Positions 32,032-50,652 are shown, counted from the first letter of the stretch. The stretch: 64,000 nucleotides of DNA from Candidatus Bathyarchaeota archaeon (GCA_050123155.1 JASFHP010000002.1:3990-67989), one strand, 5' to 3'. Made by a program: numbers and translations. Notes: generated by a model from the letters alone, not told the origin.

Positions 32032-32559
32032 ATGGTCACTGTTAAATTCCATGTCGTTGCTAGTAGTGTTTGGTTGTCGGTTTTGAGGTTCATAACTGAT
32101 GGCATGCTGGGCAAATTAACCCGTTGGCTTCGCATGCTGGGGCACGACGTCACCTATTTCCGGTCGGCTGATGATGAAAAGCTTGTTGAATTGGCGAAAT
32201 CTGAGAAGCGGGTTCTGCTTACCCGCGACCATGAACTGTATCAGCAGGCTGTGGCTCGTGGATTGGATGTGGTTTTGGTTGAGGCAACGGATGAAGCTGG
32301 GAAACTTGCTGATTTGGCTGGGCGGTTCGGTTTTATGTTGGAGGTTGATTTGAGTGTTTCTCGTTGTTCCAAATGTAATGCTAGGATTGAGGCTGTGCCT
32401 AAGGGGGTGGTGGTTGATGAGATTCCTGAGGCAACGTCGATGTATTATGATGATTTTTGGAAGTGTCCGGGGTGCGGTCAGGTGTATTGGCGGGGGGCGC
32501 ACTGGAAGAGGATAGAAAAAACTTTGGAAGAAGCAAAGAGCAAGTTAGGGTTGGTGTAG
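32032..32559 (+). CDS. Mut7-C (DUF82) PIN-like RNase domain protein with a C-terminal Zn-ribbon
   Basis: FITDGMLGKLTRWLRMLGHDV is the family N-terminal signature. CSKC...CPGC Zn ribbon. The true start is probably the TTG at 32083. Confidence 0.75.
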   Translation: MVTVKFHVVASSVWLSVLRFITDGMLGKLTRWLRMLGHDVTYFRSADDEKLVELAKSEKRVLLTRDHELYQQAVARGLDVVLVEATDEAGKLADLAGRFGFMLEVDLSVSRCSKCNARIEAVPKGVVVDEIPEATSMYYDDFWKCPGCGQVYWRGAHWKRIEKTLEEAKSKLGLV

Positions 32560-32652: not shown

Positions 32653-32721
32653 ATGGAGGAAGAAGACTGGGAAGAAGATGAAGATGTTGATGAAGACGAG
32701 GATGAAGACGAGGAATGGTGA
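32653..32721 (+). CDS. Candidate 22-aa hyper-acidic micro-ORF (MEEEDWEEDEDVDEDEDEDEEW)
   Basis: GGAGGTGA at 32636-32643 lies 9 nt upstream of the ATG. It is below the ORF-track length cutoff, and there is no homology evidence. Confidence 0.25.
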   Translation: MEEEDWEEDEDVDEDEDEDEEW

Positions 32722-33050: not shown

Positions 33051-33064
33051 TGAATGTTCATTCA
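33051..33064. promoter_or_regulatory. Inverted repeat TGAATG-tt-CATTCA upstream of the KaiC-like/amt promoter
   Basis: Perfect 6-bp arms. It shares its half-site with the palindromes at glnA (50028-50041) and lrp (50153-50168). Confidence 0.45.
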
Positions 33065-33108
33065 TCCATAATATCTATTATGGAAATATATTCAGTAAAA
33101 AGGAAATG

Positions 33109-33152
33109 TTTATATACAAACAGTCAATATTCTCCAGAATAATTGAATGAAG
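33109..33152 (+). promoter_or_regulatory. Core promoter/leader module TTTATATACAAACA-N21-TGAATGAAG of the KaiC-like/amt operon
   Basis: The same 14-mer, the same 21-nt spacing and the same TGAATGAA box occur on the minus strand upstream of glnA (50023-50068). Confidence 0.6.
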
Positions 33153-33163
33153 TGTGATTCAGT

Positions 33164-33907
33164 ATGGCAATGCAGAAAAAATCAAACATCGAATGGATCG
33201 ACATAGGAGTGGCTGGGCTGAACGAATTCATTCCCGGACTACCAAAAGGTGACGCGATTCTGGTGCGAGGTGAACCAGGTACTGGCAAAACTATCTGTTG
33301 TTTGCAGTTCCTTTACAAGGGCGCAAAGAGCGGCGAAAAGTGCTTGTACATCACTACAGAAGAAACTCCTGAATCGGTAATGCGAACTGGAGGGGAACTT
33401 TGGTCCGATTTTCCAGACCTGATCAGAGCCGGAACAATAAAGGTCATCAACATGTCCATAAGCGCAGAATACGCCAGCGAATACGGCATACTTAACAAGG
33501 CAGAAGCAATGAGCATTGCCGAAAAGGGATTTGCTGCGCAACCCAAAGCATCAAGAATCGTAATTGACTCACTGTCTTCACTGGAGAAGCGCCTGTCTAA
33601 CTTTGACGAGTTCCGAGAAGTCTTCATGAGGCTACTGCTGGAAACCAAACACAAAGGAGCAACCTTACTACTCACCGCCGAAGGCATCCCCCTGACTCCA
33701 GACATCACCGAATACCTTGTAGACCACCTGATATACCTTGACTACCGGAAACAAGACACACAGTGGACACGTGTTTTCATTTTTCGAAAGTCACGAAGCG
33801 TACCCCTAAAGCCGCAGATACTTAAACTGAACATCGAGCCAGGCGGACTGTCAGTAGAAGAAACACCATTCGCACTAAATCCTGTGTGGTTCCAAAGCAA
33901 AATCTAA
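33164..33907 (+). CDS. Single-domain KaiC/RecA-superfamily ATPase (paralog 1)
   Basis: Walker A GEPGTGKT and Walker B-like RIVIDSLSS. The 247-aa size is typical of archaeal KaiC-like proteins. Confidence 0.85.
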   Translation: MAMQKKSNIEWIDIGVAGLNEFIPGLPKGDAILVRGEPGTGKTICCLQFLYKGAKSGEKCLYITTEETPESVMRTGGELWSDFPDLIRAGTIKVINMSISAEYASEYGILNKAEAMSIAEKGFAAQPKASRIVIDSLSSLEKRLSNFDEFREVFMRLLLETKHKGATLLLTAEGIPLTPDITEYLVDHLIYLDYRKQDTQWTRVFIFRKSRSVPLKPQILKLNIEPGGLSVEETPFALNPVWFQSKI

Positions 33908-33929
33908 ACAAAATAATGAGTGATTTGAA

Positions 33930-34670
33930 ATGATGATGAAACAACCAAGCAATATTGAATGGATTGACATCGGGTTGGATGGTCTGGAAAAGTTTATTCC
34001 CGGCATTCCAAGAGGTGACGCGATTCTGGTGCGAGGTGAACCAGGTACTGGCAAAACTATCTGTTGTTTGCAGTTCCTTTACAAGGGCGCAAAACAGGGC
34101 GAAAAGTGCTTGTACATCACTACAGAAGAAACCCCAGAAACAGTAATGCGAACTGGAGGAGAACTCTGGTCTGACTTCCCCAGCCTGATTAGAAATGGAA
34201 CAATAAGGGTCGTCAACTTATCTATCACTGCAAGCTACGCCAGCGAATACTGTCTGATTGACAAAGCAGAAGCTATGGGTATTGTTGCAAAAGGGTTAGC
34301 TGCGCAACCTGGAGCAAGCAGAATCGTGATTGATTCACTGTCTTCACTGGCAAGGCGGTTGTCCAATTCTGATGAATTCCGTCAAGTCTTCATGAAGCTA
34401 CTAATGGAAACCAAAGGCCAAGGGGCAACCGTACTATTTAGTGCCGAAGGCATTCCCGCATCTCCGGGCATCACTGAATACCTTGTAGACCACTTGATAT
34501 ACCTTGACTACCGGAAACACGATGTTGTGTGGACGCGCGTTTTCCTTCTCCGAAAGTCGCGAAGCGTACCTCTGAAGCCGCAGATACTTAAACTGAACAT
34601 CAAAGCAGGCGGACTGTCAGTGGAAGAGATACCATTCTCGCTGAAGCCTGTTTGGTTCGGCGGCAGTTAA
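33930..34670 (+). CDS. Single-domain KaiC/RecA-superfamily ATPase (paralog 2)
   Basis: Same motifs as paralog 1. It is collinear with paralog 1 at a constant 766-nt offset. Confidence 0.85.
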   Translation: MMMKQPSNIEWIDIGLDGLEKFIPGIPRGDAILVRGEPGTGKTICCLQFLYKGAKQGEKCLYITTEETPETVMRTGGELWSDFPSLIRNGTIRVVNLSITASYASEYCLIDKAEAMGIVAKGLAAQPGASRIVIDSLSSLARRLSNSDEFRQVFMKLLMETKGQGATVLFSAEGIPASPGITEYLVDHLIYLDYRKHDVVWTRVFLLRKSRSVPLKPQILKLNIKAGGLSVEEIPFSLKPVWFGGS

Positions 34671-34684
34671 TCGGGTGATGAATA

Positions 34685-36004
34685 ATGACTTTAGATCAAG
34701 CAACTGAAGCATGGGCAGCGTTCCAGCAGAACTTCTTCGTAGGATGGGCACCCGTAGCCATTTTCATCATGGCAACTGCAGGTTTCGCCCTGTTCTATGC
34801 AGGAATGGTCCGCAAAAAGAACGTCACCCACACGATACTTCAAATCAACGTAGGCTGGACACTAGCGTTCGTTATATACTTCCTCGTAGGCTTTCCGTTG
34901 GCATACTACGTGGCTCAACCCGTGTTCGGGTTACCACAATTCGTTCCAACCATCGCTAACCCGCTGCCACCGTTATTGTCTGAAACAGGTGCTTATGGCA
35001 TAGCCGCAAGCCCCTCTGGACTTGGCGACCTTGCAACATGGTTCAAAATGGCGATGTTCGCTATCACCGTCGTAGGCATCGTCCCCGGAGGCATGGCAGA
35101 ACGTGACAAGTTCTGGGGCTGGATCATAGCCGCTGTAGGCGTAGCAGGCTTCATCTACCCTGTTGTTGAGCACTGGGTTTGGGGTGGAGGCTGGCTAAGT
35201 GAAATTGGTTTCATCGATTACGCAGGTTCAGGTGTAGTTCACCTAGTCGGAGGTACACTTGCACTAACTGGAGCATACGTGATTGGTCCAAGGATAGGAA
35301 AATTCGTAGGCAAAAACAAAATGCCACGGACATTCTTTGGGCACAGCATTCCGCTGTCTGTAATTGGTGCATGGCTACTGGCTTTCGGCTGGTTCGGCTT
35401 CAATGTCGGCTCAAGCGTAGCAGCAGACCCAATGACAATCAACGTCGAACTCGCATGGGTCTCACTGACCACGGCAATGTGTATGGCAGGAGGCATGTTC
35501 GGTGCAGCTATCACCTCAAGGGGTCACGTGTTAACAAGCATGGTTGGCTTGCTTGCGGGAGCTGTCACAATATGTTCCGGAGCCGCAATTGTTCATCCTC
35601 TAGCAGGGTTCGTGATTGGCGTAGTCGCGGGAGTAATCACAACATTCACCATTGGACTCCTAGAACACAAGCTTCACATCGACGACGCATGTGGATGTTT
35701 CCCAGTTCACGCAGCATGTGGAGTCTGGGGGCTACTCGCAACAGGGATATTCGGTGGAACCGCTCTTGGAGCACACCCACTCTACGGATTCGCAGACACG
35801 GCAACATGGATCAACCAAATTGGAATACAGGCAATCGGTGCAGCCGCAATAGCACTATGGGCTGGAGCAATGGGACTGATAATGTTCACTGTCTTGAAGA
35901 AACTGAAAATACTACGCGTCACAAGAGATGAAGAACTCTACGGACTCGACATTGCACTGCACAAGACACTAGCATATCCTGAAGACATGATGGAAGAAAA
36001 GTAA
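34685..36004 (+). CDS. amt: Ammonium transporter (Amt/MEP family)
   Basis: DYAGSGVVHLVGG and other Amt signature segments, with ~11 TM helices. It starts 14 nt after the stop of KaiC-like paralog 2. Confidence 0.92.
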   Translation: MTLDQATEAWAAFQQNFFVGWAPVAIFIMATAGFALFYAGMVRKKNVTHTILQINVGWTLAFVIYFLVGFPLAYYVAQPVFGLPQFVPTIANPLPPLLSETGAYGIAASPSGLGDLATWFKMAMFAITVVGIVPGGMAERDKFWGWIIAAVGVAGFIYPVVEHWVWGGGWLSEIGFIDYAGSGVVHLVGGTLALTGAYVIGPRIGKFVGKNKMPRTFFGHSIPLSVIGAWLLAFGWFGFNVGSSVAADPMTINVELAWVSLTTAMCMAGGMFGAAITSRGHVLTSMVGLLAGAVTICSGAAIVHPLAGFVIGVVAGVITTFTIGLLEHKLHIDDACGCFPVHAACGVWGLLATGIFGGTALGAHPLYGFADTATWINQIGIQAIGAAAIALWAGAMGLIMFTVLKKLKILRVTRDEELYGLDIALHKTLAYPEDMMEEK

Positions 36005-36065: not shown

Positions 36066-36082
36066 CCCCTTTTTTAAAAAAA
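36066..36082 (+). terminator. Pyrimidine-rich/oligo-T tract after amt
   Basis: CCCCTTTTTTAAAAAAA begins about 60 nt after the amt stop codon. Confidence 0.35.
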
Positions 36083-36231: not shown

Positions 36232-39099
36232 TTGGTTTCTCGCTCAACTAGAAGCAAACTGAAAGTGGCTTTTTTTGCTAACTTGATTGTTTTAGCTGTT
36301 GCAGTTCCAAGTTACTTGTATGTCGAGTCGCTGATTCCCAAACCCGCCGAATTTCAAGTAGCTGACTTGGTTTTTGACCAAAGCTGGGTTCAAGTTGGAA
36401 CTCCCGTGGAAATCTCGGTTAACGTAACCAACATTGGAGACTTGAGCGGTAACTGTTCGGTAACCCTGACAATAGATGATGCTCCGATAACAACGAAAAC
36501 GGTTCAGCTTTCAGCGGCAGAAACTGCAACATTATCCTTCACTGCCCCAGATTTAGCGGTGGGAAACCACACAGTCGCCATAGGCGATTTAACTGGATCA
36601 GTTAGAGTTACGGTGGAAGCGCCAATCCGACCAGCCGAACTACAGATAACAAATCTGGCGATTAGCCGAAAAGAAGCTGGAATCGGAGAAACTGTAACCG
36701 TTTCAGCTACGGCGACCAACATTGGGGATGTGGCTGGCGAGTTTTCGCTGAATCTTTTTGTGAATGACGAAAAGCGGGAAACCAAGGTTGTCCAGTTGGA
36801 TAGCGGCGAAACCGCAACTGTAGAATTTGAAGTTGTTGAAGATGTTGAGGGCGACTACGCGGTCAGGTTAGGCGCTTTAACTGACTCCTTTAGTGTTACT
36901 TCTGATCCTCCAGAGGTTGAGCCTGCAGAGTTTCAGGTAACCGAGTTAACGGTTAATCCTTCTTCTGTTGTGGCTGATGAAGTTGTGGAAATTTCTGTTA
37001 GGGTAACCAATGTTGGAGAAGCCAGCGGCAGTTATACTGTGGACCTCAAAATCGATGATACCGTAAGAGAAACAAAGAATGTTGCCTTGTCTGGCGGCGC
37101 AACTGTGGTTGTAACCTGTGAAGTAACTGAGACATATCCGGGCGTGCACAGTGTTGAGATAGGCGACCTGTCAGGGTCATTCACTGTTGAAGGCTTGGTT
37201 CCTGCATCAGAGCACATAGACCTGCATAATGTCAGGGTAAGCCCCTATGAAGTTGTGGATGGCGATACAGTAACCATCAAAGCTAAAGCCGATAATCTGG
37301 CGAATGAAGAGGGTACACTTCAGGTAAGGGTTTTGCTGGATGAAGTGGTTGAGACAACTGAAATGTTCCAGTTGGCTGCGGCTGCAAAAGATGTGCCAAT
37401 CGAAATCACAGTTACAGCAGAATACACGGGGGATGGAACAGAATCAGATGGATACAACGTTAAGTTACTGAATCTCGGAAATCAAAGCGATACTCATTCA
37501 GGATACTTCTTGGTTGTTCCTGATGGATTCCACACTCTCAGTATTTCAGCGAACGCTATCGGCATGGAGTTTACCCTAAACGGCGAAACTTATTCTGCAC
37601 CATATAGTGCACTCTTGCCTGAGGGAACTTACACCATAACAGTGCCTGACGGTTTCAAAGGCGGAGGAACATTCTGGAATTGGACCAGCTGGAGTGATGG
37701 ACCGACAGACCTCACCAGAGTTATAGAGCTAAACCAGCGTACGTCTCTTATTGCCACCTATTTGAACTGTAAATCTTGTCCTTCCCTGTACGTTTGGAAT
37801 GGAGAGGAATACTTGTACACTGGCGAAATATCTGATGGCACAGGCTACTTGGGAATTTTTGACTACTTCCGAGAAGACGGAAGCCTATCCTTCCTTTACA
37901 GCGTTCCATGGGACTACCTCAAATTGAATGCGAGCCGACTTGAAGCAAACGACGGCTACTACGACATGGTCATCACCCAAAAATGGGACGAAATCGCCTA
38001 TGTGGATTCTGCCACATTAATGATTGTTGAACACTCAGCCGATGTGGATGTGTATTCAACCAAAGCCACGTACCTGTATGAGCCTGAGGGGCAAGGCACA
38101 ATTTACTCTGTCAGCAAAGACCCTCGTTCCCCAGTTTCCTGCGTCACAGGAGATGGAGAAGACGTATTGTCTTTAGTCTTGGAACGTGACGGAGTGACCA
38201 CCGATGGCAACGAATTCACATGGGACACCTTGGAGTTAGACTTAGGCGACCTCTCTGATGCAGAAGAAATTAAGCTCATAGTCGCCGGAACAATAATTTA
38301 CTCTACGGGTGAAGAGCAGGGGGAATGGGCTGCGCAGTTCTATAATCAGCCTGGTGAGCAGCCGTTTCCGCCTCCTTATATGGAGGTTAAAGACGCTGAA
38401 GGCAACTGGGTTCGTGTTGCGGATAACAGGCAGTTCCCGTTGCTTGATGTTACGCCCGACTGCTTTGTGGTAAACTTGACTGGCGTCTTCCTGACGGATG
38501 ATTACTCCATTAGGATACACACTTTCTTCAACACCGAATTCGATTATATCGGAGTGGACACAACATCACAGCAGGATGTGACTGTTCGGGAGGTAACTGT
38601 TTCATCTGCCACTTTGTACCAAGCTTTCACAACTAATTCCACTTCAACAGGAAATTTCACGCGATACGGCGACGTAACCGAGCTTATGGAATACGCAGAC
38701 GACATGTATGTGATAACGCGACAAGGAGACGAAATACACCTGCTGTTCCCCGCTGAGACGGATCCAGTTGCAGAAGGTATGGAGTGTGATTACTTCGTGT
38801 TTGCTAGTGTATGGTTCAAAGTTGATGGGCTGTTTTACGTAGACTTCAATGTGGAGCCTTTACCGTTCCATAACATGACTTGCTTCCCGTATGATACAGA
38901 AACAGAAAGCTATCCCTACGATGCAGAACATCTAGAGTATCTGGAGGAATACAACACCCGAGTGATAGAAGCTACGCAACAAGAAACGGGTTCCCAACAA
39001 GAAACTGCAGCAAATCTGATTTCTTTCATGCTCTTTTTGATAGTGCCTTTAATGTTCCAGAGACGCCCACAACATGCACTGCCACGGTTTTCCCGTTAA
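36232..39099 (+). CDS. Large surface protein: N-terminal TM anchor, 4 CARDB-like repeats, ~500-aa C-terminal domain and a C-terminal hydrophobic segment
   Basis: The repeats share the pattern PAEFQV..L.....V..G..V.ISV.VTN[IV]G..[SA]G. TTG start. Confidence 0.75.
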   Translation: MVSRSTRSKLKVAFFANLIVLAVAVPSYLYVESLIPKPAEFQVADLVFDQSWVQVGTPVEISVNVTNIGDLSGNCSVTLTIDDAPITTKTVQLSAAETATLSFTAPDLAVGNHTVAIGDLTGSVRVTVEAPIRPAELQITNLAISRKEAGIGETVTVSATATNIGDVAGEFSLNLFVNDEKRETKVVQLDSGETATVEFEVVEDVEGDYAVRLGALTDSFSVTSDPPEVEPAEFQVTELTVNPSSVVADEVVEISVRVTNVGEASGSYTVDLKIDDTVRETKNVALSGGATVVVTCEVTETYPGVHSVEIGDLSGSFTVEGLVPASEHIDLHNVRVSPYEVVDGDTVTIKAKADNLANEEGTLQVRVLLDEVVETTEMFQLAAAAKDVPIEITVTAEYTGDGTESDGYNVKLLNLGNQSDTHSGYFLVVPDGFHTLSISANAIGMEFTLNGETYSAPYSALLPEGTYTITVPDGFKGGGTFWNWTSWSDGPTDLTRVIELNQRTSLIATYLNCKSCPSLYVWNGEEYLYTGEISDGTGYLGIFDYFREDGSLSFLYSVPWDYLKLNASRLEANDGYYDMVITQKWDEIAYVDSATLMIVEHSADVDVYSTKATYLYEPEGQGTIYSVSKDPRSPVSCVTGDGEDVLSLVLERDGVTTDGNEFTWDTLELDLGDLSDAEEIKLIVAGTIIYSTGEEQGEWAAQFYNQPGEQPFPPPYMEVKDAEGNWVRVADNRQFPLLDVTPDCFVVNLTGVFLTDDYSIRIHTFFNTEFDYIGVDTTSQQDVTVREVTVSSATLYQAFTTNSTSTGNFTRYGDVTELMEYADDMYVITRQGDEIHLLFPAETDPVAEGMECDYFVFASVWFKVDGLFYVDFNVEPLPFHNMTCFPYDTETESYPYDAEHLEYLEEYNTRVIEATQQETGSQQETAANLISFMLFLIVPLMFQRRPQHALPRFSR
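36343..37477 (+). repeat. Four tandem CARDB-like coding repeats (~90-95 aa each)
   Basis: Read from the translation: the units begin PAEFQVADL, RPAELQITNL, EPAEFQVTEL and EHIDLHNVRV. Confidence 0.7.
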
Positions 39100-48556: not shown

Positions 48557-50014
48557 CTAATAGTCCAAGTATTTCATTATTTCCCACGGAGTGACATAGA
48601 GGCAGTACTGGTTCCAGTCGTTGGTCTTGTATTCTATGAAGGCATCGAATATGTGGCTTCCAAGAGCCTTATGGACTACCTCGTCGCTCTTCATCGCTTC
48701 CAAAGCATCCTTCAGTGTTGTCGGCAACTCTTTAATGCCAAGAGCGCGTCTCCGTTCAGGGCTCAGCTCATAAACGTCCTCGTCTACTGGGTCGCCGGGG
48801 TCAATCTTCTTCTTTATGCCGTCAAGTCCAGCCATCAGTATACACGACAAGGCTAGGTATGAGTTGCATGATGGATCAGCGGCACGTAATTCAGCGCGTT
48901 TGGCTGCAGCGTGCGCGGGGCCTTTGAAGTATACCGGAACACGTACCATAGCTGACCTGTTGCGTCGTGACCACATTATGTAAATGGGAGCCTCGAAACC
49001 TGGCACAAGTCGCTTGTAAGAGTTTACTGTTGGGCAATTCACGGCGGTTATGGCTCTGGCGTGCTCTAGTAAGCCTCCGATGAAGTATCTGCCTGTTTGG
49101 CTGAGCTCAGCGTACTTGTCTTTTTCGTCATACATCACGTTCTTTTTGCCCTTCCACAGAGATGCGTGAACGTGCATGCCACTGGCGTTGTCAAGGTAAA
49201 CTGGTTTAGGCATGAAAGTGGCGATTAACCCATGCTTCTTTGCCACGTTTTTGGCGACAAACTTGTAGAACATTGTCCTGTCAGCGGTTTTCACCAGCTC
49301 TCCATACTTGAAGTCTATCTCTATCTGTCCTGCCGTGGCAACCTCGTGGTGGTGCATCTCGATTTCTGTGTCAAAGTTTTCTTCCAACAGTGAGGCAACC
49401 TCGTTTCGATACTCAACGGTTGTGTCCTCTGGCGGGGGTCTGAAGTATGCCTCTTTTGGTCTTAGTGTGTGGCTTCCCGGGGTGGTTTCTGGGGATTTAG
49501 GTACAACTCTTGGTGCGCCCCACGAGTCTCCGGCGCCGCCTTTTGGGCTGACCCACATGTCCCAGACAAGGTTTGTGGGGTCTATGGAACTGAAGACGAA
49601 GTATTCCAGTTCTGGACCGAAGAAGCCAGTGTAGCCCATGTCTTTCGCTGCTTGGACTGCCTTTCTGGCTACGTATCCTCTTGGGTCTACGTTTGATGGT
49701 TCTGTGCCTCCGAATGCTTCGTAGATGTCGCCTAGGATTATGGCGCTCTTCTGTTGCTCGTCGGTTGTCCATGGGATGATGGCTAATGTTTCTGGGTCGG
49801 GTTTGAGAATCATGTCGGATTCGTGTATGGTTTTGAAGCCTCGTACAGATGAGCCGTCGAAGCCGATGCCTGCGGTTAGGGCTTGTCCCTCCGTGTAGTG
49901 TTTTGCGGGTATCACTACGTCCTGCATTAGACCTCGCATGTCTACGAAGGCTGTGTGTACCCATCGGATTTTGTTTTTCTTTAATGTTTCTTTGGCTGTG
50001 TTAATGGCCTCCAT
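48557..50014 (-). CDS. glnA: Glutamine synthetase type I
   Basis: FMPKPVYLDNASGMHVHASLW and other GS signature blocks. I prefer the start at 50014 (GGTGA RBS; matches the KaiC-like leader geometry). An alternative ATG lies at 50026. Confidence 0.93.
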   Translation of the reverse strand: MEAINTAKETLKKNKIRWVHTAFVDMRGLMQDVVIPAKHYTEGQALTAGIGFDGSSVRGFKTIHESDMILKPDPETLAIIPWTTDEQQKSAIILGDIYEAFGGTEPSNVDPRGYVARKAVQAAKDMGYTGFFGPELEYFVFSSIDPTNLVWDMWVSPKGGAGDSWGAPRVVPKSPETTPGSHTLRPKEAYFRPPPEDTTVEYRNEVASLLEENFDTEIEMHHHEVATAGQIEIDFKYGELVKTADRTMFYKFVAKNVAKKHGLIATFMPKPVYLDNASGMHVHASLWKGKKNVMYDEKDKYAELSQTGRYFIGGLLEHARAITAVNCPTVNSYKRLVPGFEAPIYIMWSRRNRSAMVRVPVYFKGPAHAAAKRAELRAADPSCNSYLALSCILMAGLDGIKKKIDPGDPVDEDVYELSPERRRALGIKELPTTLKDALEAMKSDEVVHKALGSHIFDAFIEYKTNDWNQYCLYVTPWEIMKYLDY

Positions 50015-50022
50015 GTTATTCA

Positions 50023-50068
50023 CCATTCATTCAGCTGAATGTGAAATTATTACATGTTTGTATATAAA
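50023..50068 (-). promoter_or_regulatory. glnA core promoter/leader module TTTATATACAAACA-N21-TGAATGAATGG, overlapping the palindrome CATTCAGCTGAATG (50028-50041)
   Basis: Read on the minus strand. It has the same architecture as 33109-33152. Confidence 0.6.
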
Positions 50069-50099
50069 TGTTTCTGATAAACTGAAGGAAAACTTATAT

Positions 50100-50122
50100 A
50101 CTTGTTCCGTTAATGAACAAGT
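50100..50122. promoter_or_regulatory. Inverted repeat ACTTGTTC-N7-GAACAAGT in the glnA-lrp divergent region
   Basis: Perfect 8-bp arms, adjacent to the TATA-like CTTATATA at 50093-50100. Confidence 0.35.
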
Positions 50123-50152
50123 GTTCACGGCAAAACGAAAAACAAATTTGTC

Positions 50153-50168
50153 GAATGATTAATCATTC
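50153..50168. promoter_or_regulatory. Perfect 16-nt palindrome GAATGATTAATCATTC, 14 nt upstream of the lrp start codon
   Basis: Read directly from the sequence. It shares the GAATG half-site with the glnA and KaiC-like/amt elements. Confidence 0.5.
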
Positions 50169-50181
50169 AATCAAGGAGGAA

Positions 50182-50652
50182 ATGAAACTGAGTAATGGCT
50201 CATCTCATAAAGTTGATGACGTTGACCGAAAAATCATCCGTTTACTGCAAGAGGATGCCAGAAAAAGCTTCAACAAGATAGCTGAAAGTCTCGGTATAGC
50301 TGTTGGAACAGCCTACAACCGAGTGAAGAATCTGGAGGATAACGGCATCCTGAAAGGCTACACGATAATGTTGGATTCGGCTAAGCTCGGTTATGGCTTG
50401 ACGGCTCTCATACTTATTGAGGCGGAGGGGCGGTATCTGCCCGAGGTGGAGAAGGAACTTGCCAAGCTGGACGAGGTTATATGCATCTATGACATCACCG
50501 GAGACTATGACATAGCGGTGGTTGCTCGATTCAAAAACAGGAGTACACTAAACAACTTCATCAAATCGACACTGAAGATGCCCCACGTAAGCAGAACAGT
50601 CACAAACGTTGTACTCAACGTCGTCAAAGAAGACTTCAGAGTAAAAGTATAA
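50182..50652 (+). CDS. lrp: Lrp/AsnC-family transcriptional regulator (HTH + RAM domain)
   Basis: DDVDRKIIRLLQEDARKSFNKIAESLGIAVGTAYNRVKNLEDNGIL HTH region followed by a RAM domain. AGGAGG just upstream of the ATG at 50182. Confidence 0.85.
   Translation: MKLSNGSSHKVDDVDRKIIRLLQEDARKSFNKIAESLGIAVGTAYNRVKNLEDNGILKGYTIMLDSAKLGYGLTALILIEAEGRYLPEVEKELAKLDEVICIYDITGDYDIAVVARFKNRSTLNNFIKSTLKMPHVSRTVTNVVLNVVKEDFRVKV

Follow-up and report, generated by a model that had tools for sequence, protein, structure and literature searches.

What is the function of a pair of KaiC-type ATPase genes placed directly ahead of an ammonium transporter, at a locus without the usual PII regulator? To address this question, we examined a 64,000-nt stretch of DNA (hereafter, the window) from a Bathyarchaeia archaeon (Candidatus Bathyarchaeota archaeon, GCA_050123155.1 JASFHP010000002.1:3990-67989). 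An initial annotation made from the sequence alone had described two tandem KaiC-like ATPases packed upstream of an Amt gene, with no PII (glnK) gene in the window and with a promoter module shared with glnA, and proposed that a KaiC-like hexamer regulates ammonium uptake in an ATP/ADP- or phosphorylation-dependent manner, replacing or supplementing GlnK. All of the observed features were confirmed. The first ORF (33164-33907, + strand; 247 aa) and the second (33930-34670, + strand; 246 aa) are separated by 22 nt, share 79% identity without gaps, and carry the Walker A motif GEPGTGKT. The Amt (34685-36004, + strand; 439 aa; PF00909, E 9e-95) follows after a further 14 nt. A tblastn search of the window with E. 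coli GlnK and GlnB gave nothing better than E=1.8, whereas the same probe recovered PII genes of 105-113 aa at 38-51% identity in related loci, one of which was confirmed as PF00543, making the negative result meaningful. No tRNA and no Rfam match was detected in the window.

We next asked whether the three genes could constitute a single, nitrogen-regulated transcription unit. The archaeal promoter core, consisting of a TATA box TTTATATA followed by ACAAACA, lies at 33109-33122 (+), about 42 nt before the ATG of the first ORF and within a 44-nt inverted match to the glnA promoter. The sequence TTTATATACAAACA occurs only here and at 50055-50068 (-) in the window, against 0.06 occurrences expected by chance. 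A palindromic operator-like element, TGAATGTTCATTCA, is found at 33051-33064; its pattern, TGAAYRNNYRTTCA, recurs only at 50114-50127, against 0.19 expected, and the palindrome and TATA box are spaced by about 51-52 nt at both sites. The module at 50055-50127 (-) is the mirror of 33051-33122 and precedes glnA (glutamine synthetase; 48557-50026, - strand; PF00120 and PF03951), which is predicted to be co-regulated with the operon. In relatives, the module is conserved upstream of both ATPase paralogs and of glnA. An Lrp/AsnC-family regulator (50113-50652, + strand; PF01037 and PF13412) is divergent from glnA and is a candidate binder of the palindrome by inference only; Lrp homologs lie next to glnA or the KaiC-like/amt genes in many relatives. 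A hairpin-terminator scan, part of a sigma-70 scan that does not suit an archaeon and was used for this purpose only, found no hairpin terminator inside the operon. A separate search found no run of five or more T in either intergenic spacer; the first T6 (36070-36075, +), a candidate archaeal terminator, lies 66 nt after the amt stop codon.

Both ATPases matched the Pfam KaiC profile PF06745 over its full length (E 9e-43 and 1e-41; 146.7 and 142.9 bits against a cut-off of 26.6; profile positions 2-228 of 231). The Walker A (G36-E-P-G-T-G-K42-T), catalytic glutamate pair (T64-T-E66-E67), Walker B (V133-I-D135-S), and K-x-R-G/S arginine (R208-K-S-R211-S) all align to the KaiC motifs. An AF2 monomer model was only moderate (mean pLDDT 63), with the conserved C-terminal third below 50, rendering it adequate for fold assignment but not for surface analysis; its core (residues 30-175) has pLDDT of about 75-94, and the top Foldseek matches were KaiC, PH0186, and FlaH (probability 1.00, TM about 0.6-0.7), in agreement with a RecA-like alpha/beta fold. 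The best profile match was to KaiC itself (E 1.8e-43 to 8zn5; about 5e-33 to S. elongatus KaiC), specifically the CI ATPase domain. However, these proteins possess a single domain rather than CI plus CII (247 aa against about 519), score far below the circadian KaiC cut-offs (NF006799/TIGR02655; 92.7 bits against 408 and 53.5 against 546), and have E183 and Y184 at the positions aligned to the S431/T432 phosphosites; none of the neighboring ORFs scanned is KaiB-like, and nothing recovered points to KaiA or KaiB partners or to a clock function.

The next closest sequence and fold matches are the single-domain archaeal KaiC-like ATPases PH0186 (2zts), PH0284 (2dr3), SSO2452 (2w0m), and ArlH/FlaH (4yds), which share the size (about 230-250 aa) and the above motifs, and which, like KaiC CI/CII, form rings. 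ArlH also provides a precedent for a KaiC-like protein serving as an accessory subunit of a membrane-associated machine. Identity to these proteins is, however, only about 20-28%, none of them is known to be linked to an ammonium transporter, and scores fell below the cut-offs of the defined archaeal families, including KaiC_arch_3/4 and thermo_KaiC (TIGR03880/03881/03877/03878; 85.1 bits against 247.8, 78.7 against 249.5, 60.1 against 307, and 24.3 against 232), and of ArlH (NF052589; 42.3 against 215). Weak RadA, RadB, and DnaB profile hits were likewise far below their cut-offs, and a defense-system reading was rejected, as PADLOC gave only a weak, partial P-loop match to mad8 (E 4.5e-06).

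Comparisons on a larger scale showed that the subfamily is sharply isolated. Its members are at least 62% identical to each other; in 1.84 billion representatives clustered at 50% identity it corresponds to one full-length cluster (72% identity, 402 bits), and the next full-length hits are double-domain KaiCs at about 35% identity or less and about 151 bits or less. Purifying selection is extreme: across 114 unique sequences, 95 of 247 positions are at least 99% conserved, including Walker A G36-K42, E66/E67, D135, R211 (which aligns to the KaiC K-M/L-R-G arginine), and the C-terminal P240-V-W-F243. The invariant motifs EGIP, EYLVDHLIYLDY, and the PVWF tail are the subfamily's own. Both window paralogs retain all 105 positions that are at least 97% conserved. 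The second ORF (paralog B) is the ancestral-type copy, carrying the single-copy residue at most of the 18 fixed differences and abutting amt in all two-copy loci, whereas the first (paralog A) is a derived copy specific to the Bathyarchaeum-like lineage. A recent tandem duplication was considered and rejected, as each paralog forms a monophyletic clade retained across at least 20 species-level genomes.

Is the association with Amt then peculiar to this contig, the condition that had been set beforehand as refuting a functional link? It clearly is not. Anchoring on the ATPase, all 64 genome loci that extend far enough downstream have the Amt directly downstream on the same strand. Anchoring on the transporter, 110 of 125 clade Amts have at least 800 nt of upstream sequence, and all 110 have the KaiC-like gene directly upstream (median gap 13 nt, range 3-181). 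The pair occurs in Bathyarchaeia, Asgard archaea (Promethearchaeota, Sigynarchaeum, Hermodarchaeota), and at least 12 Anaerolineae/Chloroflexota MAGs, one of these bacterial loci having a bacterial-type gene context, and it has moved together across the archaea/bacteria boundary. The two proteins also diverge in step (pairwise-distance r = 0.90 over 103 loci; mean divergence 23% for the ATPase and 26% for the Amt). Together with the promoter shared with glnA, these results effectively refute the view that a RadA/RadB-like repair paralog merely happens to sit next to amt. The full-text literature searches, which did not extend to the key comparative study of archaeal KaiC-like ATPases (Makarova et al. 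2017), found no prior description linking KaiC-like genes to amt.

With respect to PII, the interpretation offered in the initial annotation was only partly supported: the functional tie between ATPase and transporter is strongly supported by comparative genomics, but replacement of GlnK is not supported as a general statement. In 31 of 107 loci (29%), the same pair is directly followed by a canonical glnK, often with a gap of only 3-23 nt, indicating that the ATPase coexists with PII and is ancestrally its companion rather than its substitute; it is also equally conserved whether glnK is present or absent. Supplementation of GlnK remains viable. In the window's own lineage, by contrast, none of about 35 loci of the two-copy (Bathyarchaeum-like) clade has glnK near amt, even where a second Amt is present, and in that same clade the ATPase is duplicated; local compensation is therefore possible but unproven. 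A homology search with a Bathyarchaeia GlnK returned 7,546 hits and was uninformative as to a PII gene elsewhere in this genome; the description of the related complete genome of Ca. Bathyarchaeum tardum (CP122380.1; PMC10477458) lists one amt and mentions no PII, which is also not decisive. We regard strict non-homologous displacement of PII at the transporter as improbable.

We then examined whether the Amt is a transporter or a sensor, as its best solved-structure sequence match is the sensor Ks-Amt5 (6eu6; 167.6 bits against 157 for AmtB), with the sensor Sd-Amt1 (8qj3/8qpf) also ranking high. The protein matches PF00909 over its full length (318 bits against a cut-off of 23.2), as its only domain, and TIGR00836 at 338 bits, just under the cut-off of 343.3. 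Alignment to AmtB recovers the twin-His (H186/H342), Phe gate (F125/F239), S243, D178, and the C-terminal G420-L-D...H426...A430-Y431 region, all invariant in the clade; the E. coli W148 position aligns to Val, such that this feature is absent or the alignment uncertain there. Sensor Amts coupled to cytoplasmic transducers are established (PMC5764959, PMC11152129), including the Ks-Amt5 histidine kinase and Sd-Amt1 diguanylate cyclase, and suggest an alternative in which the Amt is an ammonium "transceptor" and the ATPase its transducer, a signaling hub in the sense proposed for archaeal KaiC-like ATPases that relays ammonium availability to regulators (Lrp/AsnC, the RHH protein) or glutamine synthetase rather than gating the transporter. 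The neighborhoods lend this some support: Lrp/AsnC genes occur next to the pair in many loci, a CopG-type RHH protein in 41 loci, and glnA is adjacent in Anaerolineae and several archaea. However, these regulators are lineage-specific, and only the Amt is invariant. Moreover, the N1/N2 receptor signature (Q-X6-E-X15-N-X2-D-[FT]-X54-60-T-X2-[ST]; PMC11152129) matched 0 of 103 clade Amts but did match the Ks-Amt5 control. The aligned positions here are A30, Y38, I54, G57, and W58; Tyr38, at the Af-Amt1 Tyr27 position, is the invariant transporter-type residue, and the exit-funnel position is Gly rather than a blocking Asn. The Amt ends in the canonical C-terminal region without the fused transducer of the sensor proteins, any transducer here being a separate polypeptide. 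We accordingly downgraded this reading and consider it unlikely.

The explanation that we favor, with moderate confidence, is that the ATPases represent a previously undescribed subfamily that is an obligate, nitrogen-regulated cytoplasmic partner of this Amt clade. In this model, the ATPase would assemble into a KaiC-like hexameric ring, here possibly mixed from paralogs A and B, as the conserved trans-acting arginine and catalytic glutamates imply an active, oligomeric enzyme. The ring would dock on the cytoplasmic face of the three-fold-symmetric Amt trimer and couple gating to cellular nucleotide or phosphorylation state, in parallel with the 2-oxoglutarate/ATP/ADP-sensing GlnK where that is present and without it in lineages lacking an adjacent glnK. 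Our analysis directly establishes the gene content, the strict two-way co-occurrence, the transfer of the pair across domains, the conservation of catalytic residues, the transporter-type features of the Amt, and the promoter module shared with glnA; co-transcription (from the short spacers and absence of an internal terminator), ATPase activity, oligomeric state, contact with Amt, and the direction and effect of regulation are inferences from sequence. Certain observations also sit less easily with the model. No clade-specific cytoplasmic insertion in the Amt marks a docking site, its C-terminal region being canonical apart from an H-K-T-x-A-Y-P-E motif; GlnK docks on the same face, such that a ring and a PII trimer would have to alternate or stack, which is unexplained; and in most two-copy relatives paralog A is a separate transcription unit with its own promoter, so a mixed ring is not required.

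Conserved adjacency alone also cannot separate regulation of Amt from signaling by Amt or from its assembly. One-to-one co-inheritance and translational-coupling-like spacing would equally fit a dedicated assembly, insertion, or quality-control factor using ATP for trimer formation or turnover, and GvpD, a related KaiC-family P-loop protein whose Pfam P-loop profile was also hit here, controls the level of a partner protein. Nevertheless, other Amts, including the second Amt in the same loci, need no such factor, the Amt has no unusual domains, and the ATPase surface is conserved far more strongly than a generic chaperone would need, leaving this reading doubtful. Still less likely is that the ATPase energizes uptake, converting the Amt into an ATP-dependent pump in energy-limited anaerobes: catalytic residues are strictly conserved and all hosts are, judging from record titles, anaerobic sediment or digester lineages, but no precedent is known to us for a RecA-fold ring driving a channel-type transporter, the Amt keeps every feature of a self-sufficient electrogenic transporter, and GlnK, an inhibitor of uptake, is present in many loci.

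The functional analogy behind the favored model is the AmtB-GlnK complex (PMC10433425), in which a small cytoplasmic nucleotide-binding oligomer of three-fold-compatible symmetry is encoded in tight linkage with amt and co-regulated with nitrogen assimilation genes. The folds are nevertheless unrelated (RecA/KaiC P-loop against the PII ferredoxin-like trimer), and the ATPase gene lies upstream rather than downstream of amt. KtrAB/TrkAH potassium uptake systems offer a further analogy, without implied homology, as a separately encoded, ATP/ADP-binding cytoplasmic ring gates an adjacently encoded channel-type transporter; the ring there has an RCK fold, and the transporter family and substrate differ. 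A more far-reaching possibility, which we hold only tentatively, is that the ATPase is a new class of ammonium-transporter partner, a hexameric ATP-hydrolyzing (possibly autophosphorylating) ring that docks on the Amt trimer and gates or reports ammonium flux as a second, PII-independent regulatory layer, moves between archaea and bacteria as a two-gene module, and in Bathyarchaeum-like archaea has taken over from GlnK altogether.

For about 25 years, control of prokaryotic ammonium uptake has been explained almost entirely by the AmtB-GlnK paradigm, to which sensor Amts fused to kinases or cyclases were added only recently. A second, unrelated, separately encoded nucleotide-binding partner, if as tightly linked to its Amt as glnK is to amtB and present in Bathyarchaeia, Asgard archaea, and Anaerolineae, would change how nitrogen uptake is modeled in several abundant anaerobic sediment lineages. 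The module is small, highly conserved, and should be expressible in a heterologous host, and the shared palindrome and TATA module offers an entry point to the unknown nitrogen regulon of Bathyarchaeia. It would also provide a concrete, testable client for one of the many orphan archaeal KaiC-like ATPases, whose roles are mostly unknown.

Three co-directional genes were recovered on the + strand of the window: ORF1 (paralog A; 33164-33907, 247 aa), ORF2 (paralog B; 33930-34670, 246 aa), and amt (34685-36004, 439 aa). The intervening spacers are 22 nt (ACAAAATAATGAGTGATTTGAA) and 14 nt (TCGGGTGATGAATA), with the second containing a GGTGAT Shine-Dalgarno-like motif. Both shorter ORFs matched the Pfam KaiC profile (PF06745) end to end (E 9e-43 and 1e-41), whereas the third matched Ammonium_transp (PF00909, E 9e-95). 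ORF1 and ORF2 are 79% identical without gaps. A tblastn search with E. coli GlnK and GlnB recovered no PII gene in the 64 kb (best E 1.8); as the same probe detected PII genes of 105-113 aa in related loci, one of which was confirmed as PF00543, this negative result is meaningful. The window likewise holds no second Amt and no further KaiC-like gene. Neither spacer contains a hairpin terminator or an oligo-T run, and the first T6 lies 66 nt after the amt stop codon. The initial annotation, which described tandem KaiC-like ATPases packed upstream of an ammonium transporter without a PII gene, was therefore confirmed in full.

The closest homologs are named Candidatus Bathyarchaeota or Bathyarchaeum. 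A Mut7-C RNase-domain gene (32032-32559) lies upstream of the operon and a 955-aa CARDB-repeat surface protein (36232-39099) lies downstream, neither of which is related to nitrogen metabolism. The CARDB protein is syntenic throughout the clade with two ATPase copies (48-90% identity), but is separated from amt by an oligo-T run and about 230 nt, with no evident link to the operon. In the 600-nt intergenic region between the Mut7-C gene and the operon promoter, we also observed a GA-rich direct repeat at 32664-32709 (GAAGATGAAGATGTTGATGAAGAC...), which would encode an acidic stretch if translated. Further along the window, glnA is encoded at 48557-50026 (-), divergent from an Lrp/AsnC regulator at 50113-50652.

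The initial annotation had also proposed that the operon shares its promoter module with glnA, and this proved to be real. A 44-nt inverted match joins 33091-33134 to 50043-50086, and two elements each occur exactly twice in the window, only at these two promoters: the core TTTATATACAAACA, an archaeal TATA box plus flank (0.06 expected), and the palindrome TGAAYRNNYRTTCA (0.19 expected). The palindrome lies about 51-52 nt upstream of the identical TATA core at both sites (33051-33122 and 50055-50127), and relatives carry the same architecture upstream of paralog A, upstream of paralog B, and upstream of glnA. This places the operon in the same predicted regulon as glutamine synthetase, with the palindrome probably representing the operator of an undescribed Bathyarchaeia nitrogen regulon. 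The neighboring Lrp/AsnC protein, whose annotated ORF start (50113) overlaps the palindrome, is a candidate binder by inference only. A possible additional regulator, absent from the window, is a conserved 179-aa protein with an N-terminal CopG-type ribbon-helix-helix domain (PF01402), found at 7293-7832 of L030 (one of the related loci recovered in our searches, numbered with the prefix L) and in 40 other loci. It sits between the Lrp/AsnC gene and the KaiC-like gene, occurring in single-copy Bathyarchaeia loci and, in other orientations, in some Asgard loci.

To examine whether the adjacency is conserved, we first anchored our searches on the ATPase. A scan of one genome per species with an alignment of the family returned 64 loci at 65-93% identity, and every locus extending far enough downstream has an Amt, 66-95% identical to that of the window, directly after the KaiC-like gene on the same strand. 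Conversely, a metagenome scan with an alignment of these Amts returned 80 more loci, all at least 65% identical. Pooling both sets gave 125 clade Amts, of which 110 have at least 800 nt of upstream sequence; all 110 have a KaiC-like gene directly upstream, with a median gap of 13 nt (range 3-181). Uniqueness to this contig, which had been set beforehand as a condition that would refute the proposed link, is thus excluded, and we regard chance adjacency as a remote possibility. The hosts are Bathyarchaeia, Asgard archaea (Promethearchaeota, Sigynarchaeum, Hermodarchaeota), and at least 12 Anaerolineae/Chloroflexota MAGs. One bacterial locus, on a 286-kb contig, has a type I GlnA and a CdaR-type regulator beside the pair, which fits a bacterial genome. 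More generally, the copies of the module from Anaerolineae/Chloroflexota (L017-L027, L029, L033, L088-L093) are usually preceded by a bacterial type I glnA, in the order glnA, kaiC-like, amt, implying transfer of the two-gene unit between domains followed by integration into a bacterial nitrogen locus. Contigs labeled Clostridiaceae or Clostridiales (L056, L060, L061) also carry the module, at 64-87% identity to the archaeal proteins, although L060 and L061 are only 1.2-1.4 kb and are probably mis-binned. Pairwise divergences of ATPase and Amt correlate at r = 0.90 over 103 loci, with similar rates of 23% and 26% mean divergence, respectively. The two genes are inherited, and transferred across domains, as a unit.

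The ATPase scores below the cut-offs of all curated KaiC, KaiC_arch, thermo_KaiC, and ArlH families. A search of 1.84 billion cluster representatives recovered one full-length representative (72% identity, 402 bits) plus fragments, followed only by double-domain KaiCs at about 35% identity or less and about 151 bits or less; the subfamily is therefore an isolated island. Within it, 95 of 247 positions are at least 99% conserved across 114 unique sequences from both domains. These include Walker A (G36...K42), the catalytic pair E66/E67, Walker B D135, R211, which aligns to the arginine of the K-M/L-R-G motif of KaiC, and the family-specific motifs EGIP, EYLVDHLIYLDY, and a C-terminal P-V-W-F tail. 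The positions aligning to the S431/T432 phosphosites of KaiC are E183/Y184, so a KaiC-type phospho-switch is not evident. An AF2 model, with a good core but a poor C-terminal third (mean pLDDT 63), identified KaiC, PH0186, and FlaH as its nearest folds.

Paralogs A and B each form a monophyletic clade, and together they nest within one Bathyarchaeia lineage, with mean identities of 85% (A-A), 90.5% (B-B), and 74% (A-B). Paralog B carries the ancestral residue at most of the 18 fixed differences and is always the copy next to amt, while both window copies retain all 105 positions conserved at 97% or more. In most two-copy relatives, B plus amt has its own copy of the promoter and operator, 420-1270 nt after A, whereas in the window and in L006, another two-copy locus, that spacer has been lost, such that one promoter is inferred to serve all three genes. 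The A-B spacer is a variable region of 22-1270 nt, and in one relative (L001, 4771-5517) a 248-aa ORF with a signal-anchor-like N-terminus is inserted between the two paralogs. Close relatives also carry a second, divergent Amt (28-31% identical) next to paralog A or after Amt1 (L002, 2881-4077; L066/L067, 2686-3882; L012-L014 and L058, upstream of paralog A; L064, 1952-3148), and even this one has no glnK.

None of the two-copy loci has glnK near amt. Across the broader dataset, however, glnK follows amt directly in 31 of the 107 loci with enough downstream sequence, often with a gap of 3-23 nt, as exemplified by the canonical 112-aa PII in L063, a three-gene locus; in other Bathyarchaeia the order is KaiC-like, Amt1, GlnK, Amt2. 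The ATPase therefore coexists with GlnK and cannot be a general replacement for it. The interpretation in the initial annotation, that a KaiC-like ATPase regulates ammonium uptake by functionally replacing or supplementing GlnK, is thus only partly supported. In the clade of the window, loss of the linked glnK coincides with duplication of the ATPase, which allows local compensation but, with absence of PII established at the locus only, does not prove it. We consider strict replacement of GlnK improbable.

The best solved-structure match of the Amt is the sensor protein Ks-Amt5 (6eu6), which prompted us to test the criteria of Pflueger et al. 2024 (PMC11152129). The N1/N2 receptor signature matched 0 of 103 clade Amts, while it matched a Ks-Amt5 control. 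The transporter-type Tyr is invariant (Y38), the exit-funnel position is Gly rather than a blocking Asn, and the twin-His, the Phe gate, Ser, and Asp are all present. The Amt thus looks like a working transporter. One oddity is that the position aligning to E. coli AmtB W148, the Trp of the periplasmic ammonium-recruitment site, is Val (about V153), with a nearly invariant Trp (W146) seven residues earlier, although this rests on a pairwise HMM alignment only. Signaling in the opposite direction, from Amt through the ATPase to regulators or GS, remains possible but appears unlikely, and ATP-driven uptake seems very improbable.

Collectively, the analysis establishes an obligate, co-inherited gene pair, predicted to be nitrogen-co-regulated through the promoter module shared with glnA, made of a KaiC-type ATPase with intact catalytic residues and a transporter-type Amt. 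Beyond this we can only infer, holding the reading about as likely as not, that the ATPase is active and forms a KaiC-like ring that docks on the cytoplasmic face of the Amt trimer, since six-fold symmetry is compatible with three-fold. In this view, the ring would couple gating to nucleotide state, acting in parallel with GlnK where GlnK is present, and alone here. A role as an assembly factor for the Amt is a further, improbable alternative.

Literature searches for a prior description found nothing linking KaiC-like genes with amt, and the 2023 review of prokaryotic Amts contains no mention of KaiC, although a prior mention cannot be fully excluded. Whereas KaiC-like ATPases as such are known, the proteins described here constitute a new, partner-specific subfamily of them, and, if the inferred mechanism holds, this subfamily would be a new class of Amt regulator.
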